From: a virus
Strand: one strand, 5' to 3'
Length of the DNA stretch: 64,000 nucleotides
IMG/VR virus record: IMGVR_UViG_3300032323_001417
Span: 1 to 64,000 of that record
Shown here: one piece after another, positions 4,175 through 11,230 of the stretch
How the letters are laid out: every line of letters begins with the position of its first letter
How positions within the stretch are numbered: position 1 is the stretch's first letter
The notes under the pieces: generated by a model
What the model saw: only the letters and a program-made list of their open reading frames with translations
Told to the model about the DNA's origin: nothing
The model's database searches: none
Program-made: the position numbers and the translations under genes

Positions 4175-4289
4175 TGTTACTTCTTTCTAGTAGGTTATGA
4201 TGAAATCATACCACAAGGGTCTGACATTTTCAGGGGCTCTTCTTAAACTTCTTAAATAAGTTATCCACAGGGGGCGCGGCTTAGCTCTG

Positions 4290-4363
4290 CGATCTGGATG
4301 GGACTTGAACCCACGACCTCCGCCGTGACAGGGCGGTGCTCTAACCAACTGAGCCACCAGACC
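4290..4363 (-). tRNA. tRNA-Asp(GTC), CCA not encoded
   Basis: Acceptor stem GGTCTGG/CCAGATC, D-arm, anticodon arm CCGCC-CTGTCAC-GGCGG, GGTTCAAGTC T-loop. Confidence 0.93.
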
Positions 4364-4447
4364 AAAGGTGTGCCAGGATTTAGATCTCTATCATTCAATC
4401 ACCAACAACCTGGCGGTATTGGCTACCTTTTAATTAATTGAGTTACC

Positions 4448-4924
4448 TTACCAAGAGGCTTGGTACTCAAAATAGTCGAACTTACTATTGAGGCATCTGT
4501 CAATAATACCAATAGTGTCATTCAAATCTCCAAAGTAATACTCATCATAGTTAGTAGAACCAAAGAAGAATCCACTACCTGTTGGCAATTCTTCTTCTGC
4601 TACTTCTGGATTAGCAATTACATTTATGCAAGTTTCTTTTAGAGTTTCTAAATCTTCTCTACGAACTGTAATTGGCTGACATTCATCAACACCATCTGCT
4701 AAGTTATTTACAAACCAATGATGAATCATGTTTGACTTACGCCAGTAACCCATTGGTACATCAACGGTAATTCCAGCAAAGCCAGTAGTGTCAATTACAT
4801 CTTCTAATTCAAGACTGCTGACAATTTCATTGAATAGAGGATTTATTGTGTCCTCATCAGTTTGACGATTAAAGTTGTGACGGTATACATACTCACTTGC
4901 ACGAAGGTACATGTCTAGTCCCAT
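4448..4924 (-). CDS. Conserved phage protein (MGLDMYL...YWRK...YQASW family)
   Basis: GGAG RBS before ATG 4924; motifs common in phage early regions. Confidence 0.75.
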   Translation of the reverse strand: MGLDMYLRASEYVYRHNFNRQTDEDTINPLFNEIVSSLELEDVIDTTGFAGITVDVPMGYWRKSNMIHHWFVNNLADGVDECQPITVRREDLETLKETCINVIANPEVAEEELPTGSGFFFGSTNYDEYYFGDLNDTIGIIDRCLNSKFDYFEYQASW

Positions 4925-4981
4925 TGTGGACTCCATTCTTTTGTAGGTAAGTTTATCTTAGCAGAGAGGTCTGACAGTTTT

Positions 4982-5016
4982 AAGGTGGGGTGCAAGGGTA
5001 AGAAACACCCCACCTA
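4982..5016 (-). terminator. Hairpin terminator
   Basis: AGGTGGGGTG/CACCCCACCT stem right after the stop at 5029. Confidence 0.55.
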
Positions 5017-5028
5017 AACTTGTCTTAA

Positions 5029-5184
5029 CTACTTAGCAGTAGTCCAACGGTCTTGACCATTTACATCAAGACGGATACGCATTGAGCCGTTAGCGTTCTT
5101 TACGACTTCCTGAACGATACCAGTTACTTTGCTCTTTGCTGTTACGAACTGTGAGCCAACAGTTGGGGCGATTGTCTTTGCCAT
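5029..5184 (-). CDS. Small basic beta-rich protein, 51 aa, not in track
   Basis: MAKTIAPTVGSQFVTAKSKVTGIVQEVV...; own promoter and terminator. Confidence 0.7.
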   Translation of the reverse strand: MAKTIAPTVGSQFVTAKSKVTGIVQEVVKNANGSMRIRLDVNGQDRWTTAK

Positions 5185-5283
5185 TTGCTTCTCTTTTCTT
5201 TGGGGGAATTGTTTCCCGTTGTTGTTATAGTAATACTATACCAGAAAGGTCTGACAAAATCAAATCCATTCAGGTAATTCCAG

Positions 5284-5299
5284 GGTGATAAAGATCACT
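5284..5299. promoter_or_regulatory. CRP/GlxR-like site
   Basis: GGTGA-TAAAGA-TCACT. Confidence 0.45.
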
Positions 5300-5348
5300 T
5301 CTTAAATGCTTGACAAATATGGGATCTTGGGGCGCGGCTTCGCAGCTC

Positions 5349-5477
5349 CTACACCCTTTCCCTTTCTCGCAGGTATTCAATGTAAATTTCAGTAGATGCC
5401 ATTTCACTCATTAGTCTATCTAACTTAGTAAATGTATCTTCTTCAATTACTTCTGGTTTCTTATTAAATAATTTCAT
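5349..5477 (-). CDS. Hypothetical protein (start revised to MKLFNKK)
   Basis: ATGA coupling with 5474-5623. Confidence 0.55.
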   Translation of the reverse strand: MKLFNKKPEVIEEDTFTKLDRLMSEMASTEIYIEYLRERERV

Positions 5478-5623
5478 AGCCATTCTGCTAAATCTCCATC
5501 TGCTATTTCTGAATAGTCCATACCTTGTGATTCTGCAATTGCTTCCCACAATTGTTCTTCTGTGTAGTTTCCATCTGGATACCACTCTGTTAAAATACCG
5601 TATAAATCTTTCATCTTACTCAT
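5474..5623 (-). CDS. Small acidic protein, 49 aa, not in track
   Basis: MSKMKDLYGILTEWYPDG...; TAATG coupling. Confidence 0.6.
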   Translation of the reverse strand: MSKMKDLYGILTEWYPDGNYTEEQLWEAIAESQGMDYSEIADGDLAEWL

Positions 5624-5961
5624 TATGCAAATACCTTTCCATACAATTCAACTGTGCTACCGTCATCTAAATCGGTAAGTAGATTGTTTACTAAATCTAA
5701 TACAACTGTCTTATCAAAATTGTTACCAATTTCTGAACGGTTAATTGCATAGATACCAAAACCAGTTTCATCTAAAACATAGTCTTTAATCAGGTGTGAG
5801 ATAACCATACGGGTAAAGTATGAATAGTCACCCTTGCGTGGCTGTGCGTGTACCAATGCATCAATTAAATCATTTTCCCAATTTGATTCACCCCAATGTG
5901 AATACAAGACGGTTAATGATTCTGTTCCATCATCAAATACGAAATTAATTCTTGCACCCAT
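5623..5961 (-). CDS. Conserved phage hypothetical protein (MGARINF...LYSHWG)
   Basis: ORF track; operon context. Confidence 0.75.
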   Translation of the reverse strand: MGARINFVFDDGTESLTVLYSHWGESNWENDLIDALVHAQPRKGDYSYFTRMVISHLIKDYVLDETGFGIYAINRSEIGNNFDKTVVLDLVNNLLTDLDDGSTVELYGKVFA

Positions 5962-5962
5962 T

Positions 5963-6079
5963 TTAGTAACCTGCTTCCTTTAACATTTTTTCAATTGCTT
6001 GCAATTCTTCGGTAGACAATTTCTCAATTGCCTTTTCATCTATAACACCCTCAAATAAGTTTATTAGTAGTTCACTCAT
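5963..6079 (-). CDS. Small helical protein, 38 aa, not in track
   Basis: MSELLINLFEGVIDEKAIEKL...; GAGGA RBS. Confidence 0.6.
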   Translation of the reverse strand: MSELLINLFEGVIDEKAIEKLSTEELQAIEKMLKEAGY

Positions 6080-6080
6080 T

Positions 6081-6332
6081 TTATTCCTCTTCCCAACTAG
6101 CAAAATTATTCATAGTGCAAAAACAATCGTTACACATACCAGAAATAAATCTTTCACGAATACCTGCATCATAGTCTTTCAATACATCTTGACAATAAGC
6201 ACCTTGATTGTATGCAAATAATTGTTCTGATGAAATAGAAACGGTTTTGGTTGTGCCACAATCAGGGCAAGGTAATGATGTAACGACATAACGGTCATTC
6301 ATCACTTTCATTGGATTAGTCAAAGTGAACAT
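6081..6332 (-). CDS. Zn-binding hypothetical protein (CPDC...CNDC)
   Basis: ORF track; GAAAGGA RBS; promoter at 6363-6384. Confidence 0.75.
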   Translation of the reverse strand: MFTLTNPMKVMNDRYVVTSLPCPDCGTTKTVSISSEQLFAYNQGAYCQDVLKDYDAGIRERFISGMCNDCFCTMNNFASWEEE

Positions 6333-6463
6333 AGTGTTCCTTTCGTTTGTAGGTATGATTTCATCATAGCATAAGGGTCTGACATTTTCTCAGGGGGTCC
6401 AGGCTATTTTCTTAAAAGTCTTAAAAAAGTTATCCACAGGGGGGCGCGGCTCCCCAGCTGCCC

Positions 6464-6601
6464 CTACTTGCCGTCAGTCCACCTAGAACTATTTACAAAA
6501 TCGGAATTAGAATTCTTTTTCCATTTTATTGCATCAAGAAATGCTAAGGCTGGTAGAAATAATAAACTTGCTAGAAATAATAGAAACAGAAATTTTATCA
6601 T
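6464..6601 (-). CDS. Small membrane/secreted protein, 45 aa, not in track
   Basis: MIKFLFLLFLASLLFLPALAFL hydrophobic N-terminus; TAATG coupling. Confidence 0.55.
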   Translation of the reverse strand: MIKFLFLLFLASLLFLPALAFLDAIKWKKNSNSDFVNSSRWTDGK

Positions 6602-6732
6602 TAGTCAAACAATTCCTTTTTGTGTTTTGGTTTACGCTTGTATGCTTTTTTATTTTTGTGTGGAACGGCTGCATTACTCCTACGCAACTCAAGCCTAGCC
6701 CTAAGTTGTTCAGGTGTTGCTATAAATTTCAT
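6601..6732 (-). CDS. Small basic protein with ArfA-like C-terminal motif, 43 aa, not in track
   Basis: MKFIATPEQLRARLELRRSNAAVPHKNKKAYKRKPKHKKELFD; ATGA coupling. Confidence 0.65.
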   Translation of the reverse strand: MKFIATPEQLRARLELRRSNAAVPHKNKKAYKRKPKHKKELFD

Positions 6733-7013
6733 TCTTCCTCCCATTCAGGTTCAGATACCCAAGCATCTAAACGATGACCCTCAACAATTGCAGAGGCAGG
6801 TGCATAGTTACTACCACGCCACGAAATTCCTTGAGGCAATTCAATTTCTGCAAAGTAGTCCTCATTCCAAATTGCGTTAATAGCATCTATGCAAGGCTGT
6901 ACCATTGAGGACGGTACTGGAGGATAGCAATTGTATTGCAAGTGTAGGTTAATCTGTGCCTCAAGTGGCATTGTATCCATAGTGGATAATTCAGTTGCAA
7001 AGTTTAGTCCCAT
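6729..7013 (-). CDS. Hypothetical protein (start MGLNFAT)
   Basis: ORF track; promoter at 7046-7067. Confidence 0.75.
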   Translation of the reverse strand: MGLNFATELSTMDTMPLEAQINLHLQYNCYPPVPSSMVQPCIDAINAIWNEDYFAEIELPQGISWRGSNYAPASAIVEGHRLDAWVSEPEWEEE

Positions 7014-7069
7014 TTTATTTCTCATTTCTTGTAGGTAGGGTATTTATTCTATCAGATAGGTCTGACATT

Positions 7070-7261
7070 TTAGAATGGTGGGAATGACCAACAAGGCACA
7101 AATTCCTCATAGGTCTTGTTTATTCTTTTGATAACTATTTCAGCAAACATTGGTTCAACGCCTGACGATGCAGACTTGACGGGCTGACCAATGTATTCTA
7201 AATACATCTTGACATCTTTTGAAGGAATGTCTAACTGCTTAGCAATTTCATAGACTCTCAT
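7070..7261 (-). CDS. Stand-alone translation initiation factor IF-2 N-terminal domain protein
   Basis: MRVYEIAKQLDIPSKDV...VKSASSGVE matches the IF2_N pattern RVYELAKELG..SK...V.SASS; GGAGG RBS. Confidence 0.75.
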   Translation of the reverse strand: MRVYEIAKQLDIPSKDVKMYLEYIGQPVKSASSGVEPMFAEIVIKRINKTYEEFVPCWSFPPF

Positions 7262-7410
7262 AGTGCCTCCTCAAAGTCAGGGGATTCAAAGGTGTATCCA
7301 TACACTCTTTCAAATTCATCAACAGTCATCTTACCCTTGTAGGTATCACAGCACACAACCTGTTCAGCAAACATTTCTTGCTCACAGAAACAACAAATAA
7401 ATTCTGTCAT
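7258..7410 (-). CDS. Small Cys-rich protein, 50 aa, not in track
   Basis: MTEFICCFCEQEMFAEQVVCCDTYKG...; GAGGA RBS; promoter at 7435-7456. Confidence 0.65.
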   Translation of the reverse strand: MTEFICCFCEQEMFAEQVVCCDTYKGKMTVDEFERVYGYTFESPDFEEAL

Positions 7411-7538
7411 TTTATTTCCTCTCTTTATAAGAACACTCTAGCATAGGGGTCTGACAATTTTTTCAGGGCGATTATCCACAACTTCTTAACAGCCTGTGGA
7501 TAACGGGGGCGCGGCTCTTTTTAGCTGAGCCTGGTGTG

Positions 7539-8075
7539 CTAGGCTGCACTCCCCCTATACACAACCCAGATTAGTGCTTGAATAGTGCGAGGTGTCATTG
7601 CAGTTTCTTGAGCAATTTTTTCAATAGCCTCAGACAGTTGGCTGTAGTCTGTTTTGTTAGGGCTGTCTTTTGTTAGACCTGCTGATCGCATCATCCAAAT
7701 GTCAATCGTGATTGCATTTTCATCACCTGCAATGTTGCGAGCAAATGAATTTGTTTTCTTTCCATTAAGTGCATCGAAACCAATTTCTAAAGCACGTTGA
7801 GCCATTTTAAGATTGTTAGGTAGGCAACGCATGGTGTCATCGCCATGAGCGAATCTAAGTGCCTGACGAACGTTAGTTGACCAACGCTGACGAGGTGAGA
7901 ACGCTGACACAATACTAGCCGCTTGTTCAAGCGATACATCCATGCCTCGTGTCTTGTAAATGTCTACAATCTCATGGGCAACGGCTTCAGCATCTGCATA
8001 CCATTGGGTTGCTTGTTCGATCTGTGATGCCTTAGCACTCTTAACAATTTGGCGGTAGGTATTTTCGTAGTTCAT
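7539..8075 (-). CDS. Phage protein with possible HhH-GPD/glycosylase-like fold
   Basis: WY...SAFSPRQRW..N, GKKTNSF..NI.G....TIDIWM motifs; start revised to MNYENTY. Confidence 0.6.
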   Translation of the reverse strand: MNYENTYRQIVKSAKASQIEQATQWYADAEAVAHEIVDIYKTRGMDVSLEQAASIVSAFSPRQRWSTNVRQALRFAHGDDTMRCLPNNLKMAQRALEIGFDALNGKKTNSFARNIAGDENAITIDIWMMRSAGLTKDSPNKTDYSQLSEAIEKIAQETAMTPRTIQALIWVVYRGSAA

Positions 8076-8326
8076 GTCTATCTCATTTCTAGTAGGTATC
8101 TCTGATACTAGCACACACCCCTGACAAAAACAAGACTATTAGACATTATTTTTATAAAATTTTCAGGGCAATTTCAGGGGATTTCTTAACTATCGTAACA
8201 AGGGTTATCCACAGAGCCGCGCCCCCTCGGGCGTGTCGCAGCTGTCTAGTCTGTGTATTTATCCACTAGCAAATAAATAAAAGTGGCAAGGGATAAAATT
8301 AAAACCCAAGAATAAAAACTATTCAT

Positions 8327-8479
8327 TTAGTATTCACCTCTCAACACAAATGCAAACGAGTGTTTTCCTAAATCAAAAATCAGGGAAGTATTTTTGGTTT
8401 CTGTTTTTTTATTGTAGTAAGTTGAGAAACTAATTCCAAGAATAAAAGTTCCGTCAATTTTATTATGTACAAATCTCAT
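8327..8479 (-). CDS. Hypothetical protein, 50 aa, not in track
   Basis: MRFVHNKIDGTFILGISF...; TAATG coupling. Confidence 0.55.
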   Translation of the reverse strand: MRFVHNKIDGTFILGISFSTYYNKKTETKNTSLIFDLGKHSFAFVLRGEY

Positions 8480-8661
8480 TACACACCTACCGCATCTAAA
8501 AACTTTTGTTCATCAAAGTTTGGATTATCGCTTGCAAATAAATCTGCAAAATCTTCTGCAATACTTTTTACAAGTGAAGAAATTAAAATGTTGTCTTGTC
8601 CTGCTTCTGCATAAGAATTAAAAATCTTTGCGGTTGCTATGTAGTCTTTGCGTGTCATCAT
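8479..8661 (-). CDS. Conserved phage hypothetical protein (MTRKDY...DNPNFD..KF)
   Basis: ORF track, start revised. Confidence 0.7.
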   Translation of the reverse strand: MMTRKDYIATAKIFNSYAEAGQDNILISSLVKSIAEDFADLFASDNPNFDEQKFLDAVGV

Positions 8662-8662
8662 T

Positions 8663-8830
8663 TTATTTTCCTGCCTTAGATAGTTCAAATTCGATTGCTA
8701 ACTTTGTGTAGGCTTGTTCCCACATTCTTTTATTAGCCTTTAGTTGTGTAACGCTTACGACTAAGTAAGCCAAAGCCCCAGCCAATAGGCTAGGTAGTAA
8801 GATGATTAGTGCTATTTGTATTAGTGACAT
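8663..8830 (-). CDS. Small membrane protein, 55 aa, not in track
   Basis: MSLIQIALIILLPSLLAGALAYLVV transmembrane helix; GAAAGG RBS; own promoter. Confidence 0.65.
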   Translation of the reverse strand: MSLIQIALIILLPSLLAGALAYLVVSVTQLKANKRMWEQAYTKLAIEFELSKAGK

Positions 8831-8885
8831 TGTATGCCCTTTCTTGTTGTTGTTAGTTTGATTCTAGCATAGGGGTCTGACAGTT

Positions 8886-9035
8886 TTACCTGTAGACACG
8901 CCTAGTCAAAAGTTGGATTTGTAGATTGTAGTAGTCAATCATTCGTTGATTAGTTGGGTCGTGCTTAAGGATTAACTCTAAGCCGTTTACTGCATCTACT
9001 AGCAGTCTTGCATTCTTGATTTTAGTGTAAGCCAT
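8886..9035 (-). CDS. Hypothetical protein, 49 aa, not in track
   Basis: MAYTKIKNARLLVDAVNG...; GAAAGG RBS; promoter at 9069-9090. Confidence 0.65.
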   Translation of the reverse strand: MAYTKIKNARLLVDAVNGLELILKHDPTNQRMIDYYNLQIQLLTRRVYR

Positions 9036-9215
9036 TTTGGTCTACCTTTCGTTTTATCTTATGCTTTCAGCATACACTAGGGGTCTGACATTTTTGGTAT
9101 TTCAGGGCGTGTCTAAGATGAACAGTAGGTAAACAATAATTAACAAGTTATCCACAGGATTCCAGGGCATTTCTTAACAATCGTAACAAAAGTTATCCAC
9201 AGGGGCGCGGCTCGT

Positions 9216-9231
9216 TCGAACATTTGTTCTA
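9216..9231. promoter_or_regulatory. LexA (SOS) box, Gram-positive/actinobacterial type
   Basis: TCGAAC-ATTT-GTTCTA versus consensus TCGAAC-N4-GTTCGA. Confidence 0.6.
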
Positions 9232-9245
9232 TGATGTACATCACA
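9230..9245. promoter_or_regulatory. CRP/GlxR-like site
   Basis: TATGA-TGTACA-TCACA versus TGTGA-N6-TCACA. Confidence 0.5.
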
Positions 9246-9310
9246 AAAATAGTGTCTCAAATAGTGAGATTCAGGTAGAATTTGTCAGTCAGGTGTGGTA
9301 AGTTATTACT

Positions 9311-9546
9311 ATAAAGAAAATTAAATAGTGGTTAAAAGGGATTAGGGCTTAGAAAAAAGTTTAGACCGCAAGTCTAAATGTGATTGAAAGTCCAAGTCAA
9401 ACGGAGTCTACGCTGACAGAGGTCAGTATTCACCGTCTCAGTTTCACGCTAGTGTCCTAGTCCCCTTTAACCATTATTAAATCGCTTAGTGTGAGCCTAG
9501 CAAATAAGCAACGAAAGTTGATGAGCCTAGCAAATAAAACTAAGCA
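9311..9546 (+). ncRNA. Putative structured non-coding RNA or long 5' leader
   Basis: Promoter at 9283-9304; 25-bp helix 9324-9348/9454-9478 with 3 G-U pairs; inner hairpins; second symmetric domain 9484-9545; no ORF. Confidence 0.65.
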
Positions 9547-9563
9547 TAACGAAAGGATTCATT

Positions 9564-9686
9564 ATGAATGAATTACTAATTGAAGACATCACAGATGAAG
9601 AATGTTTTGACTGTGGAGATAAGCTAACATCATGGGAATTTATTTTTTGTGTTATGTGTGATGGAATGGAACAATACGAAATCTAA
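9564..9686 (+). CDS. Zn-finger microprotein (CxxC-x11-CxxC), 40 aa, not in track
   Basis: MNELLIEDITDEECFDCGDKLTSWEFIFCVMCD; GAAAGGA RBS; paralog of 10335-10481. Confidence 0.7.
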   Translation: MNELLIEDITDEECFDCGDKLTSWEFIFCVMCDGMEQYEI

Positions 9687-9879
9687 AAAAGTCCAGGGGA
9701 TTTTAAAATTATCGTAACAAAGATAATAAAAAAATTCCGCGCCTCGTTTTCCACAGGTTGTACACATCTGTGGATAAAAGAGTTCATCTACTGTTAACCT
9801 ACGACACGCCCTATTTGGCAGAAATTGTCAGGGATGTATGCAATACTAAAGGTATTAGATAAACGAAAGAGAGAACAAA

Positions 9880-10086
9880 ATGAACTACTGTTTCTTTTGC
9901 GGTTGGGATACCGAAACCCAATTCAATGTCTGCTATACCTGCAAGGCTATAACAGATGTTGAATACACCTACACCCCTGACGTGTGCGGTGATGATGCTT
10001 GCTATGTAGTAGGCAACGAACTAAATCTTGACGGAGATTGCAATCACCTAACAGAATTCTACCAACTAGCAGACCTGACAGCCTAA
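9880..10086 (+). CDS. Cys-rich Zn-binding protein
   Basis: CFFC...CYTC; promoter at 9826-9847. Confidence 0.7.
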   Translation: MNYCFFCGWDTETQFNVCYTCKAITDVEYTYTPDVCGDDACYVVGNELNLDGDCNHLTEFYQLADLTA

Positions 10087-10140: not shown

Positions 10141-10329
10141 ATGTTTTTATTCAATCTACAAGCCCCACTAGTATTCATTGCAGTATTCTCATTACCTGCA
10201 CTACTACTAGAACTACAACTACTAGTGATTGGCTTTAACTTTATGTCTGCCAATGTGATGATAGCAACCGTTGCTATTGGTCTACTATCTGCAATAGGTG
10301 CAGTAGTTATCGAAATGATTGAGGGGTAA
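10141..10329 (+). CDS. Small membrane protein (2 TM)
   Basis: Hydrophobic ORF; promoter at 10091-10112. Confidence 0.7.
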   Translation: MFLFNLQAPLVFIAVFSLPALLLELQLLVIGFNFMSANVMIATVAIGLLSAIGAVVIEMIEG

Positions 10330-10334
10330 TAACA

Positions 10335-10481
10335 ATGAATGAATTAGCATTTGAAAACATTACAAAAAATAAGTGCATCACCTGTGATGATAAACTAACG
10401 GCTTGGGAAATCAATTTCTGCATTATGTGTGAGTCAGACCAAGAAATCGAAAACTTTTTTGATGATGATGATGACTTGTAG
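10335..10481 (+). CDS. Zn-finger microprotein, 48 aa, not in track
   Basis: MNELAFENITKNKCITCDDKLTAWEINFCIMCE; GAGG RBS. Confidence 0.7.
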   Translation: MNELAFENITKNKCITCDDKLTAWEINFCIMCESDQEIENFFDDDDDL

Positions 10482-10764
10482 AATCTAAAATTTTATTGCT
10501 TGCAGAATCTAAAATATTTTTGTCTATTAAATAAAACTATTAACAATTAGTTATGGGCTCACTAATAAAAAGGTGAGTCTATTCTAAAATCATGCATCAT
10601 ACACATTAACAAAATATTCAGATTTTCTTCAAAATGGGATCTAGCTGCAAATATAAAAATATTCAGATTTTGCGGGAAAGTGAATATATATCTCATTATG
10701 TGAGATGATATGTTACAATTGTGTTACAAATAATTTAATAGTTCAATGTTTCTGGCGAGCTGAT

Positions 10765-10793
10765 TTGACAAGCATTAAAAATGCAATTACACT
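10765..10793 (+). promoter_or_regulatory. Canonical sigma-A promoter TTGACA-N17-TACACT
   Basis: Perfect -35, 17-nt spacer. Confidence 0.6.
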
Positions 10794-10874
10794 ATGAGTG
10801 CAGCGAATCAAAAAAAGTCTCAGAAAAGTTGGGGGCAGGGGAATGAAATTATTAAAAAACAAAGAGAGAAACAA

Positions 10875-10955
10875 ATGAGTAATCAAGACTATGCTAGATA
10901 CATCTTCTGGATTGTATTAACAGCAATTTTATTGTCTACACTATCTGGTAGCTAA
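10875..10955 (+). CDS. Putative 26-aa membrane peptide
   Basis: MSNQDYARYIFWIVLTAILLSTLSGS; purine-rich leader; downstream of promoter. Confidence 0.4.
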   Translation: MSNQDYARYIFWIVLTAILLSTLSGS

Positions 10956-11230
10956 TATATATCTTTGTATAATTTCGGGGTTAATTAAATTCATTTCTGG
11001 TCATATGCGTTAGCATCCATTATTATTCTTTATTAACATATTGACAATATAGACATATCTGACATATCTTCATATAGGGGATAATTCTGCATATTTATAA
11101 ATCCCCCCAAAAATCCTACATATATAACGGAGTTATAAGGTGTTGATGGGTATACTATTTTGCCGAATTTTTGCGTTTTTAATTTGCGGATTTTTTGCGA
11201 GTTTTTTAAAAATGGTATAATTAAATCATT

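Follow-up and report, generated by a model that had tools for sequence, protein, structure and literature searches.

Divergent early promoters of an actinophage combine PafBC-type core elements with overlapping LexA- and CRP-type sites

The usual view of lytic phages is that they open infection from strong constitutive promoters, or else rely on a polymerase or sigma factors of their own. What, then, is the role of a region between two divergent phage promoters that is filled with sequences resembling the binding sites of host stress and nutrient regulators? The region, which we call the hub, occupies positions 9069 to 9310 of a 64,000-nucleotide (nt) stretch of viral DNA (the window), which is bases 1-64000 of the 101,664-bp complete viral genome in IMG/VR record IMGVR_UViG_3300032323_001417. 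Genes run leftward to the left of ~9.0 kb and rightward to the right of it, and the hub is the point of divergence. It contains no open reading frame (ORF) longer than 34 amino acids (aa), and no Rfam match to it was found. An earlier note, made from the letters alone, had listed a series of motifs in the hub, all of which we found where it had placed them, and had proposed that the hub either integrates host signals or acts as a decoy for several transcription factors. Our analysis indicates that the hub is a conserved upstream control region shared by two back-to-back early promoters with a gap of ~240 bp between them. Our reading of its role, to which we give a probability of about 55%, is that it is a modular enhancer for PafBC-type promoters at which LexA would compete with CRP; we infer the binding and the logic from the motifs and from their conservation pattern, spacing and modular exchange among related phages.

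The genome has a GC content of ~35%. With a terminal repeat of only 123 bp, its base 1 is not necessarily a physical end. The actinobacterial setting assumed by the earlier note was borne out. A WhiB-family gene, at genome positions 85267-85434 and so outside the window, is the clearest marker (45 bits) and identifies the host as an actinobacterium; in addition, the portal protein is 52% identical to the portals of Comrade-type Streptomyces phages. The phage also encodes an FtsZ that is ~60% identical to those of many Actinomycetota, which did not single out a specific lineage. At the DNA level no similarity to sequenced phages was found at either of two sensitivities. Streptomyces phage Comrade itself, a cultured relative by its portal, was considered as a ready model and rejected: no TGTC-type promoters, LexA boxes or CRP sites were found in its first 13 kb. 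Domain searches of the phage proteins gave no match to WYL, Peptidase_S24, the DnaA C-terminal domain, HTH_Crp_2, Trans_reg_C or HTH_3, and Pfam and PHROG scans of 17 early proteins found no DNA-binding domain. The domain searches also found no tyrosine recombinase, serine recombinase or ParB, so the phage looks virulent, and it probably is.

The core promoters are the part of the hub most easily compared with a known system. PafBC-dependent promoters have the consensus tGTCgg-N10-tAnnnT and do without a -35 element (PMC8635444). The earlier note had seen back-to-back TGTCAG promoters at the two ends of the hub; they are present, and both the leftward promoter, P_L, and the rightward promoter, P_R (Table 1), fit the PafBC consensus, including its spacing, with A-rich sequence at the -35 position. 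Transcription is predicted to start near 9062 from P_L, which has a 49-aa ORF (9035..8886) downstream, and near 9311 from P_R. The P_L element TGTCAGACC occurs 13 times in the genome, always in the early region, and each copy is followed by 7 nt and then a TAnnnT hexamer. The more general pattern TGTCRG-N10-TAnnnT was observed 15 times against 1.7 expected; this and all other chance expectations given below come from first-order Markov simulations over the whole 101.7-kb genome. Among relatives, the -26 element of P_R is TGTCAG or TGTCGGTG (TGTCAG/TGTCGG variation), the -10 element is kept, and the 10-nt spacer is variable.

These promoters resemble the mycobacterial PafBC-dependent (RecA-NDp) promoters and their sigma adaptation (PMC8635444) in the TGTCRG element, the spacer of exactly 10 nt, the TAnnnT hexamer and the lack of a -35 consensus, and the alternation of A and G at the fifth base among the phage relatives is also that of the host motif. 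They differ in being phage early promoters, 15 per genome, and in having conserved upstream slots that hold CRP-type, PHO-like, LexA and unassigned elements. In the literature on PafBC with phage promoters we found no description of PafBC-type promoters in a phage. We regard P_L and P_R as PafBC-type hybrid promoters that presumably depend on PafBC. Because they have only the -26 TGTCRG and -10 TAnnnT elements, with no -35 element, RNA polymerase carrying the housekeeping sigma factor would need host PafBC to use them; both promoters should be silent with plain RNA polymerase-SigA and be switched on by host PafBC. PafBC is activated by single-stranded DNA (PMC11804915). Each core promoter would be joined to upstream slots at fixed distances, holding sites for further regulators.

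Table 1. Predicted promoters and candidate regulatory elements of the hub (positions are those of the window)
Feature	Position	Strand	Details
P_L, leftward early promoter	9069..9090	-	-26 element TGTCAGACC 9090..9082, N7, -10 TATGCT 9074..9069
GACACGCC(C) = GACACGCCC	9105..9113	-	Promoter-proximal, about -51..-44 (~-47) of P_L
Direct repeats GTTTACC-TACT-GTTCATC, 11-nt period	9117..9134	-	About -72..-55 of P_L; PHO-box-like (OmpR/PhoB family)
DnaA-box 9-mer TTATCCACA, copy 1	9148..9156	+	Missing in about half of the hub relatives
CCCTGGAA and TTAAGAA/TAACAA repeat stretch	9160..9192	-	Common body of early-promoter cassettes
DnaA-box copy 2 abutting GC motif	9193..9211	+	TTATCCACA 9193-9201; GGGGCGCGGC 9202-9211; upstream edge of P_L cassette
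SOS (LexA) box TCGAAC-ATTT-GTTCTA	9216..9231	.	Centre ~-87.5 of P_R, about -161 of P_L
CRP/GlxR-type palindrome TATGA-TGTACA-TCACA	9230..9245	.	Centre ~-73.5 of P_R; 2-bp overlap with LexA box
Inverted repeat TCTCA-AATAG-TGAGA	9255..9269	.	Centre ~-49 of P_R
P_R, rightward promoter	9283..9304	+	TGTCAG 9283-9288, N10, -10 TAAGTT 9299-9304

To see which of the upstream elements are kept, we compared more than 100 related metagenomic phage contigs. Motif scans of a viral contig collection gave 81 contigs with a LexA box plus TATGA, at least 120 with a CRP core upstream of TGTCAGACC, 21 with the TCTCA dyad, and 15 with the GC motif adjoining a DnaA box. In alignments of the hub, a core from ~9160 to 9290 persists, and the flanking genes differ, being mosaic or non-homologous. 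In one relative (L016) the second rightward promoter, which in the window lies at 9826, is joined directly to the hub core, so positions 9284-9825 look like an insertion. Footprinting across related phages was a check that the earlier note had named; its outcome was that the arms of the LexA and CRP-type sites are conserved and their spacers are free.

The LexA consensus determined in Streptomyces venezuelae by chromatin immunoprecipitation sequencing (ChIP-seq) is tCGAAC-N4-GNNCGa (PMC9380542). The SOS box in the hub fits 15 of 16 positions of the actinobacterial/Gram-positive type, TCGAAC-N4-GTTCGA, and with at most one mismatch allowed it is the sole match in the genome, against an expectation of 0.02. 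It is intact in 18 of 22 hubs that were fetched by other anchors. Among 14 distinct variants of the composite that it forms with the CRP-type site, the LexA arms are unchanged, and just two central bases vary (TT, TA, TC or GA). The LexA-like site pointed out by the earlier note was thus sustained by a unique genome match, by invariant arms and by a free centre in relatives, and its reading as a LexA box is strongly supported, insofar as sequence can speak to it. No S24 peptidase domain was found in the phage, which makes the LexA of the host the natural candidate for the ligand. A third promoter, with TATGAT as its -10 element and occluded by LexA, was also considered and was rejected as unlikely: the sixth base of the hexamer varies among T, C and G in relatives, and the -35 position is taken up by the GC motif.

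A host SOS box in the control region of a mobile element has a parallel in promoter P1 of Bacillus phage GIL01 (PMC4551915), and the joining of DNA-damage control with a nutritional regulator has one in the colicin operons, where LexA acts with a second global regulator (PMC4482635). In these systems the SOS box lies over the core promoter, and the carrier is a temperate element or a plasmid. In the present phage, in contrast, the box lies near -87.5 and overlaps an activator-type site, and lysogeny genes were not found. Colicin E1 is controlled by LexA together with cyclic AMP (cAMP)-CRP.

The site that the LexA box overlaps is a palindrome of the CRP/GlxR type. GlxR of the actinobacterium Corynebacterium glutamicum recognizes TGTGA-N6-TCACA (PMC7999487), and the palindrome in the window has 9 of these 10 positions. 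Its distance from the promoter is constrained. Where a CRP-like site stands upstream of a PafBC-type promoter in the close family, its gap to the -26 element is always 17, 27/28 or 37/38 nt, and 27 distinct CRP-type sites fall in the upstream windows, which make up 7.4% of the sequence, against 5 elsewhere. Among the matches listed for the wider family, 130 contexts had gaps of 18 (4 contexts), 27-29 (37), 33-34 (24) or 37-40 nt (65), with none at the other 19 gap values allowed. The consensus of these listed matches is TGTGAnnTAnnTCACA. At positions that the search had left unspecified, they have T1 in 93 of 106 and A16 in 104 of 106, and T8 and A9 are each found in ~57%, a preference for a central TA. 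The fuller GlxR consensus also has a central TA. With transcription assumed to start 7 nt after the -10 element, the predicted centres are ~-53.5, -63.5 and -73.5, an activator-like series. Invariant arms, a free spacer and discrete promoter distances in relatives all favour the CRP-like site of the earlier note, and a CRP/GlxR-type identity for the palindrome is strongly supported across the family, as a prediction from the motif.

Like class I CRP promoters (PMC10187061) and GlxR sites (PMC7999487), the phage promoters have a 16-bp TGTGA-N6-TCACA palindrome upstream of the core promoter, and, as at class I CRP promoters, most of the phage gaps (18, 27-29 and 37-40) are ~10 bp apart. Unlike class I promoters, the phage promoters have a PafBC-type partner without a -35 element, one arm of the palindrome in the window is TATGA, and there is a second class with gaps of 33-34. 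Loci L178-L256 have the word AATGTCCG(A/T)(A/T)TT between the CRP-type site and the -26 element. This word, which contains the PafBC GTC core, is the hallmark of the 33-34 class and also accompanies some of the sites at gaps of 39-40; it may be a second PafBC-type contact or the site of another factor. The centres of the phage sites are ~2 nt off the series of class I CRP positions in Escherichia coli.

Because the LexA box and the palindrome share two base pairs, two dimers should exclude each other. Variation in the composite is confined to its spacers: none of 20 arm columns varies, against 5 of 10 spacer columns (Fisher P = 0.0018). The T of the shared dinucleotide TA comes from the CRP consensus and the A from the LexA consensus, a compromise that explains the single mismatch in each of the two sites. 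The left arm of the palindrome is TATGA in all 16 contexts with a LexA box, whereas three hubs that lack the box have TGTGA, as in the perfect consensus; relative L262, where the two sites are separate, has a perfect copy of each. Two other phage groups also carry a LexA plus CRP-type composite, in one case before an ordinary -35/-10 promoter and in the other as a LexA-CRP-LexA sandwich, which supports an interplay of the two regulators. In composite groups with 43-49% GC (L074 and L091; L042, L043, L047, L050, L053 and others), the LexA box overlaps a TGA-N6-TCACA palindrome. The composite of the 43% GC group stands 10 nt before a canonical TTGACT-17-TATAAT promoter, and the sandwich, found in L074 and L091, has GACACGCC ahead of it.

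Such an overlap could work as a simple switch by competition. A CRP-family dimer at ~-73.5 of P_R would help to recruit polymerase, and LexA at ~-87.5, 14 bp away, would act as an anti-activator, keeping CRP off until RecA-driven cleavage removes LexA. In the literature searched, an overlap of LexA and CRP sites used as a competition switch was not described for phages. The virus thus probably reads host stress and nutrient signals on starting its early genes. In this respect the integrator proposed by the earlier note was a reasonable idea for LexA and CRP; the DnaA boxes, which it had counted among the inputs, give no special input to the hub (see below).

The slots upstream of P_L are filled differently. 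PHO-box units are 11 nt long with the core GTTCACC (PMC2691820), and the direct repeats in the hub had been likened by the earlier note to sites of the PhoP/OmpR family. The repeat pair occurs twice in the genome, against 0.03 expected; the second pair (9782-9799) is mirrored before the second rightward promoter (P_R2, 9826). In 12 of 14 distinct contexts, GTTNAYC pairs stand 26-27 nt before the -26 element (TGTCRG), and the intervening DNA is unrelated. Some relatives have exact GTTCACC units, and some lack the direct repeats; relatives of the L010 type, which are among the latter, have a perfect CRP-type palindrome in the same P_L slot. The likeness to PhoP/OmpR sites was therefore upheld in part, the fixed gap speaking for it and the absence from some relatives against it, and we consider the repeats a moderately supported candidate for PHO-box-like elements. 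Streptomyces PhoP PHO boxes (PMC2691820) and the 7-bp direct repeats with a 4-bp spacer of Mycobacterium tuberculosis PhoP (PMC4832192) likewise consist of two direct 11-nt units with a GTTCACC-like 7-mer core. The phage units, GTTTACC and GTTCATC, differ in matching that core at 5-6 of 7 positions and in having a 4-nt spacer conserved to the same degree as the core. The helper at P_L would be an OmpR/PhoB-type regulator in this phage and a CRP-type protein in the L010-type relatives.

The region at 9681-9847 is a mirror copy of the module upstream of P_L: its GC motif is degenerate, its DnaA boxes (9747 and 9769) are inverted, and it also has the second direct-repeat pair and GACACGCCC. It feeds the second rightward promoter, which has TGTCAGGGA at 9826 and the -10 element AATACT.

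Two further elements lie close to the promoters. GACACGCC has four copies in the genome, against 0.28 expected. In 12 distinct contexts of the family it precedes TGTCRG by 15-18 nt; the copy at 8895 is inverted and stands at 12 nt. The earlier note had proposed a WhiA site here on the basis of GACAC. This reading is not supported: the 5-mer, although present, is too short to single out WhiA, and the conserved word is the 8-mer GACACGCC in either orientation. The TCTCA-N5-TGAGA dyad has copies at 9255, 1576 and 10691, three against 0.21 expected, and stands 13-14 nt before TGTCRG in 15 contexts; in the wider family its arms are kept and its spacer is variable. It could be bound by a phage or a host protein. 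The third copy, at 10691, covers the -35 position in an extended -10 promoter (TGTTACAAT).

The remainder of the hub is not peculiar to it. The DnaA box TTATCCACA has 10 copies in the genome, against 1.3 expected, 8 of them within 4261-9777, and at least seven promoter cassettes have such boxes. The GC motif has nine copies, mostly adjacent to a DnaA box, and the relative orientation of the two can flip; in the 15 other viral contigs with the pair, both relative orientations are found. The stretch at 9160..9192 recurs before the promoter at 8126 and in other cassettes and is conserved in relatives. The DnaA box, the GC motif, the TTAAGAA repeats and CCCTGRAA make up the standard body of an early cassette. 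The DnaA boxes of the earlier note are therefore real, but together with the GC motif they form a module of many cassettes; the hub-specific part is 9212-9282. Helical phasing of the DnaA boxes relative to the promoters was suggestive in the pooled family and unconvincing in the single genome. Two other identities for the GC motif were rejected. A Chi-like reading was dropped, and as a terminator hairpin the motif has no consistent partner sequence and the adjoining DnaA box flips orientation. These two facts point instead to an element that works at the DNA level. At 4239-4256, 6400-6425 and 7482, TTAAGAAG-like words with a period of ~9 bp lie within the early cassettes, between the DnaA box and the CCCTGAAA word.

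Several observations weigh against a modular enhancer with LexA and CRP in competition. The LexA box is absent from 4 of the 22 hub relatives, which have other sequence in its place, and it overlaps neither core promoter, so that classical occlusion would not be expected to apply. The CRP-like 16-mer, with at most one mismatch, is not enriched in this genome (3 observed, 5.1 expected), and support for it therefore comes entirely from relatives. The left arm of the palindrome lacks G2, a base contacted by CRP (PMC10187061). The argument from compromise is weakened by relative L286, whose arm reads TATGA even though the overlap is just 1 nt. Among the matches listed, about a fifth of the wider-family sites have gaps of 33-34 and are out of phase with the main series by half a helical turn. 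Many of the relatives are close kin, and the counts of contexts are not counts of independent events. Finally, small phage proteins could bind some of these sites.

Extended to the whole hub, that last possibility becomes the alternative that survives best, although we think it unlikely: the sites are operators for phage-encoded regulators, such as the small zinc-ribbon proteins or other early proteins, and their likeness to host sites is coincidence or mimicry. The early region is indeed full of small proteins without an assigned function, the motif set travels with the phage family, and we can name no host factor whose sites resemble the TCTCA dyad, GACACGCC or the GC motif. For these three, phage-encoded binders are plausible. 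The two central sites are another matter. Recognizable DNA-binding families of the relevant kinds were not found in the phage. The LexA box agrees with the actinobacterial consensus at 15 of 16 positions, and the positions at which it is free to vary coincide with those at which the consensus is free; the palindrome consensus, among the matches listed, reproduces the CRP/GlxR motif at positions that the search left unspecified. The same LexA plus CRP-type composite also occurs in phage groups of different gene content.

The decoy that the earlier note had offered as its second possibility would be a multi-factor sink, titrating host regulators as the phage copy number rises and regulating no phage promoter. 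Ten DnaA boxes on a replicating phage genome would suit such a sink, but each genome has a single LexA box and a single CRP-type site, and all the sites keep strict distances to the -26 element, which a sink does not need. Fixed distances from the promoter favour regulation over titration, and we consider a decoy improbable.

That the hub is the replication origin of the phage is, in our estimation, very improbable, even though it has the ingredients: two or three perfect DnaA boxes, iteron-like direct repeats with an 11-bp period, an AT-rich stretch between divergent units and a minimum of the cumulative GC skew near 9 kb. However, the skew is lowest where the genes change strand, and over 5.5 kb at least six other early promoters are also preceded by the module of DnaA box and GC motif. 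DnaA box 1 and the direct repeats are missing in several relatives, and the repeats and the palindrome are held at fixed promoter distances, with relatives swapping one for the other. Neither a repeated AT-rich unwinding element nor an adjacent initiator gene was seen, the neighbours being small genes with no assigned function. It is also very improbable that the motifs are chance look-alikes conserved by recent common descent of the contigs compared, for although many relatives are near-identical in the core and the earlier note had tried many motif types, the core persists amid mosaic or non-homologous flanks, only spacer columns vary, the distances hold even where the DNA in between is unrelated, and the same architecture is found in at least 120 contigs of 33-42% GC.

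The DNA to the right of the hub has features of its own. The first transcript from P_R begins with an ORF-free structured RNA (9311-9490, + strand) that has a closing helix of ~25 bp and a minimum free energy of -54.9 kcal/mol (z = -5.5 relative to shuffled sequences); no Rfam match to it was found. It is present in the window and in L018 and L019 and absent in most relatives, where P_R runs straight into leader repeats. These repeats in the window are two copies of the 16-mer TGAGCCTAGCAAATAA (9492-9507 and 9522-9537), 30 nt apart, in the 5' leader of a 40-aa zinc-ribbon ORF. TGAGCCTAGCAAATAA is conserved directly after P_R in most relatives, and related CTAGCAAATAA words lie near 8531, 8265 and 10524. 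Three genes of the right arm (9564-9686, 9880-10086 and 10335-10481) encode tiny CxxC...CxxC zinc-ribbon proteins, two of which share an MNEL start and acidic tails, and a fourth (10141-10329) encodes a 62-aa membrane protein; none of these proteins had a Pfam or named PHROG match. The segment at 10475-11230 is AT-rich and gene-poor and has ordinary sigma-70-like promoters, tandem 24-nt repeats (10475-10522) and two 16-nt repeats 45 nt apart (10611 and 10656). Two 20-nt repeats (11156 and 11180) precede a tail-fibre-like gene.

LexA boxes in temperate phages and in colicin operons are well known (PMC4551915, PMC4482635). What is new here is a LexA box in what is probably a virulent actinophage, interlocked with a CRP-type site upstream of a PafBC-type promoter, together with a grammar of slots that extends across the family. 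It is possible, and we offer it tentatively, that in a large, low-GC family of virulent actinophages the early promoters are built from a host PafBC -26 element and interchangeable upstream sockets for global regulators of the host (the LexA/CRP interlock, PHO-type repeats and DnaA boxes), that expression would be an AND function of host DNA-damage, cAMP and phosphate signals, and that the inputs would be rewired by exchanging sockets at the same helical position. Although the host is uncultured, the sites match those of regulators from model actinobacteria, so proteins already available would serve for tests of the 240-bp fragment. The spacing rules of the family form a compact, testable grammar for PafBC-type promoters, and they could guide work on host regulons. 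If, as it seems, the early promoters depend on PafBC and are gated by LexA- and CRP-type sites, the first minutes of infection by these phages would be conditional on the physiology of the host.

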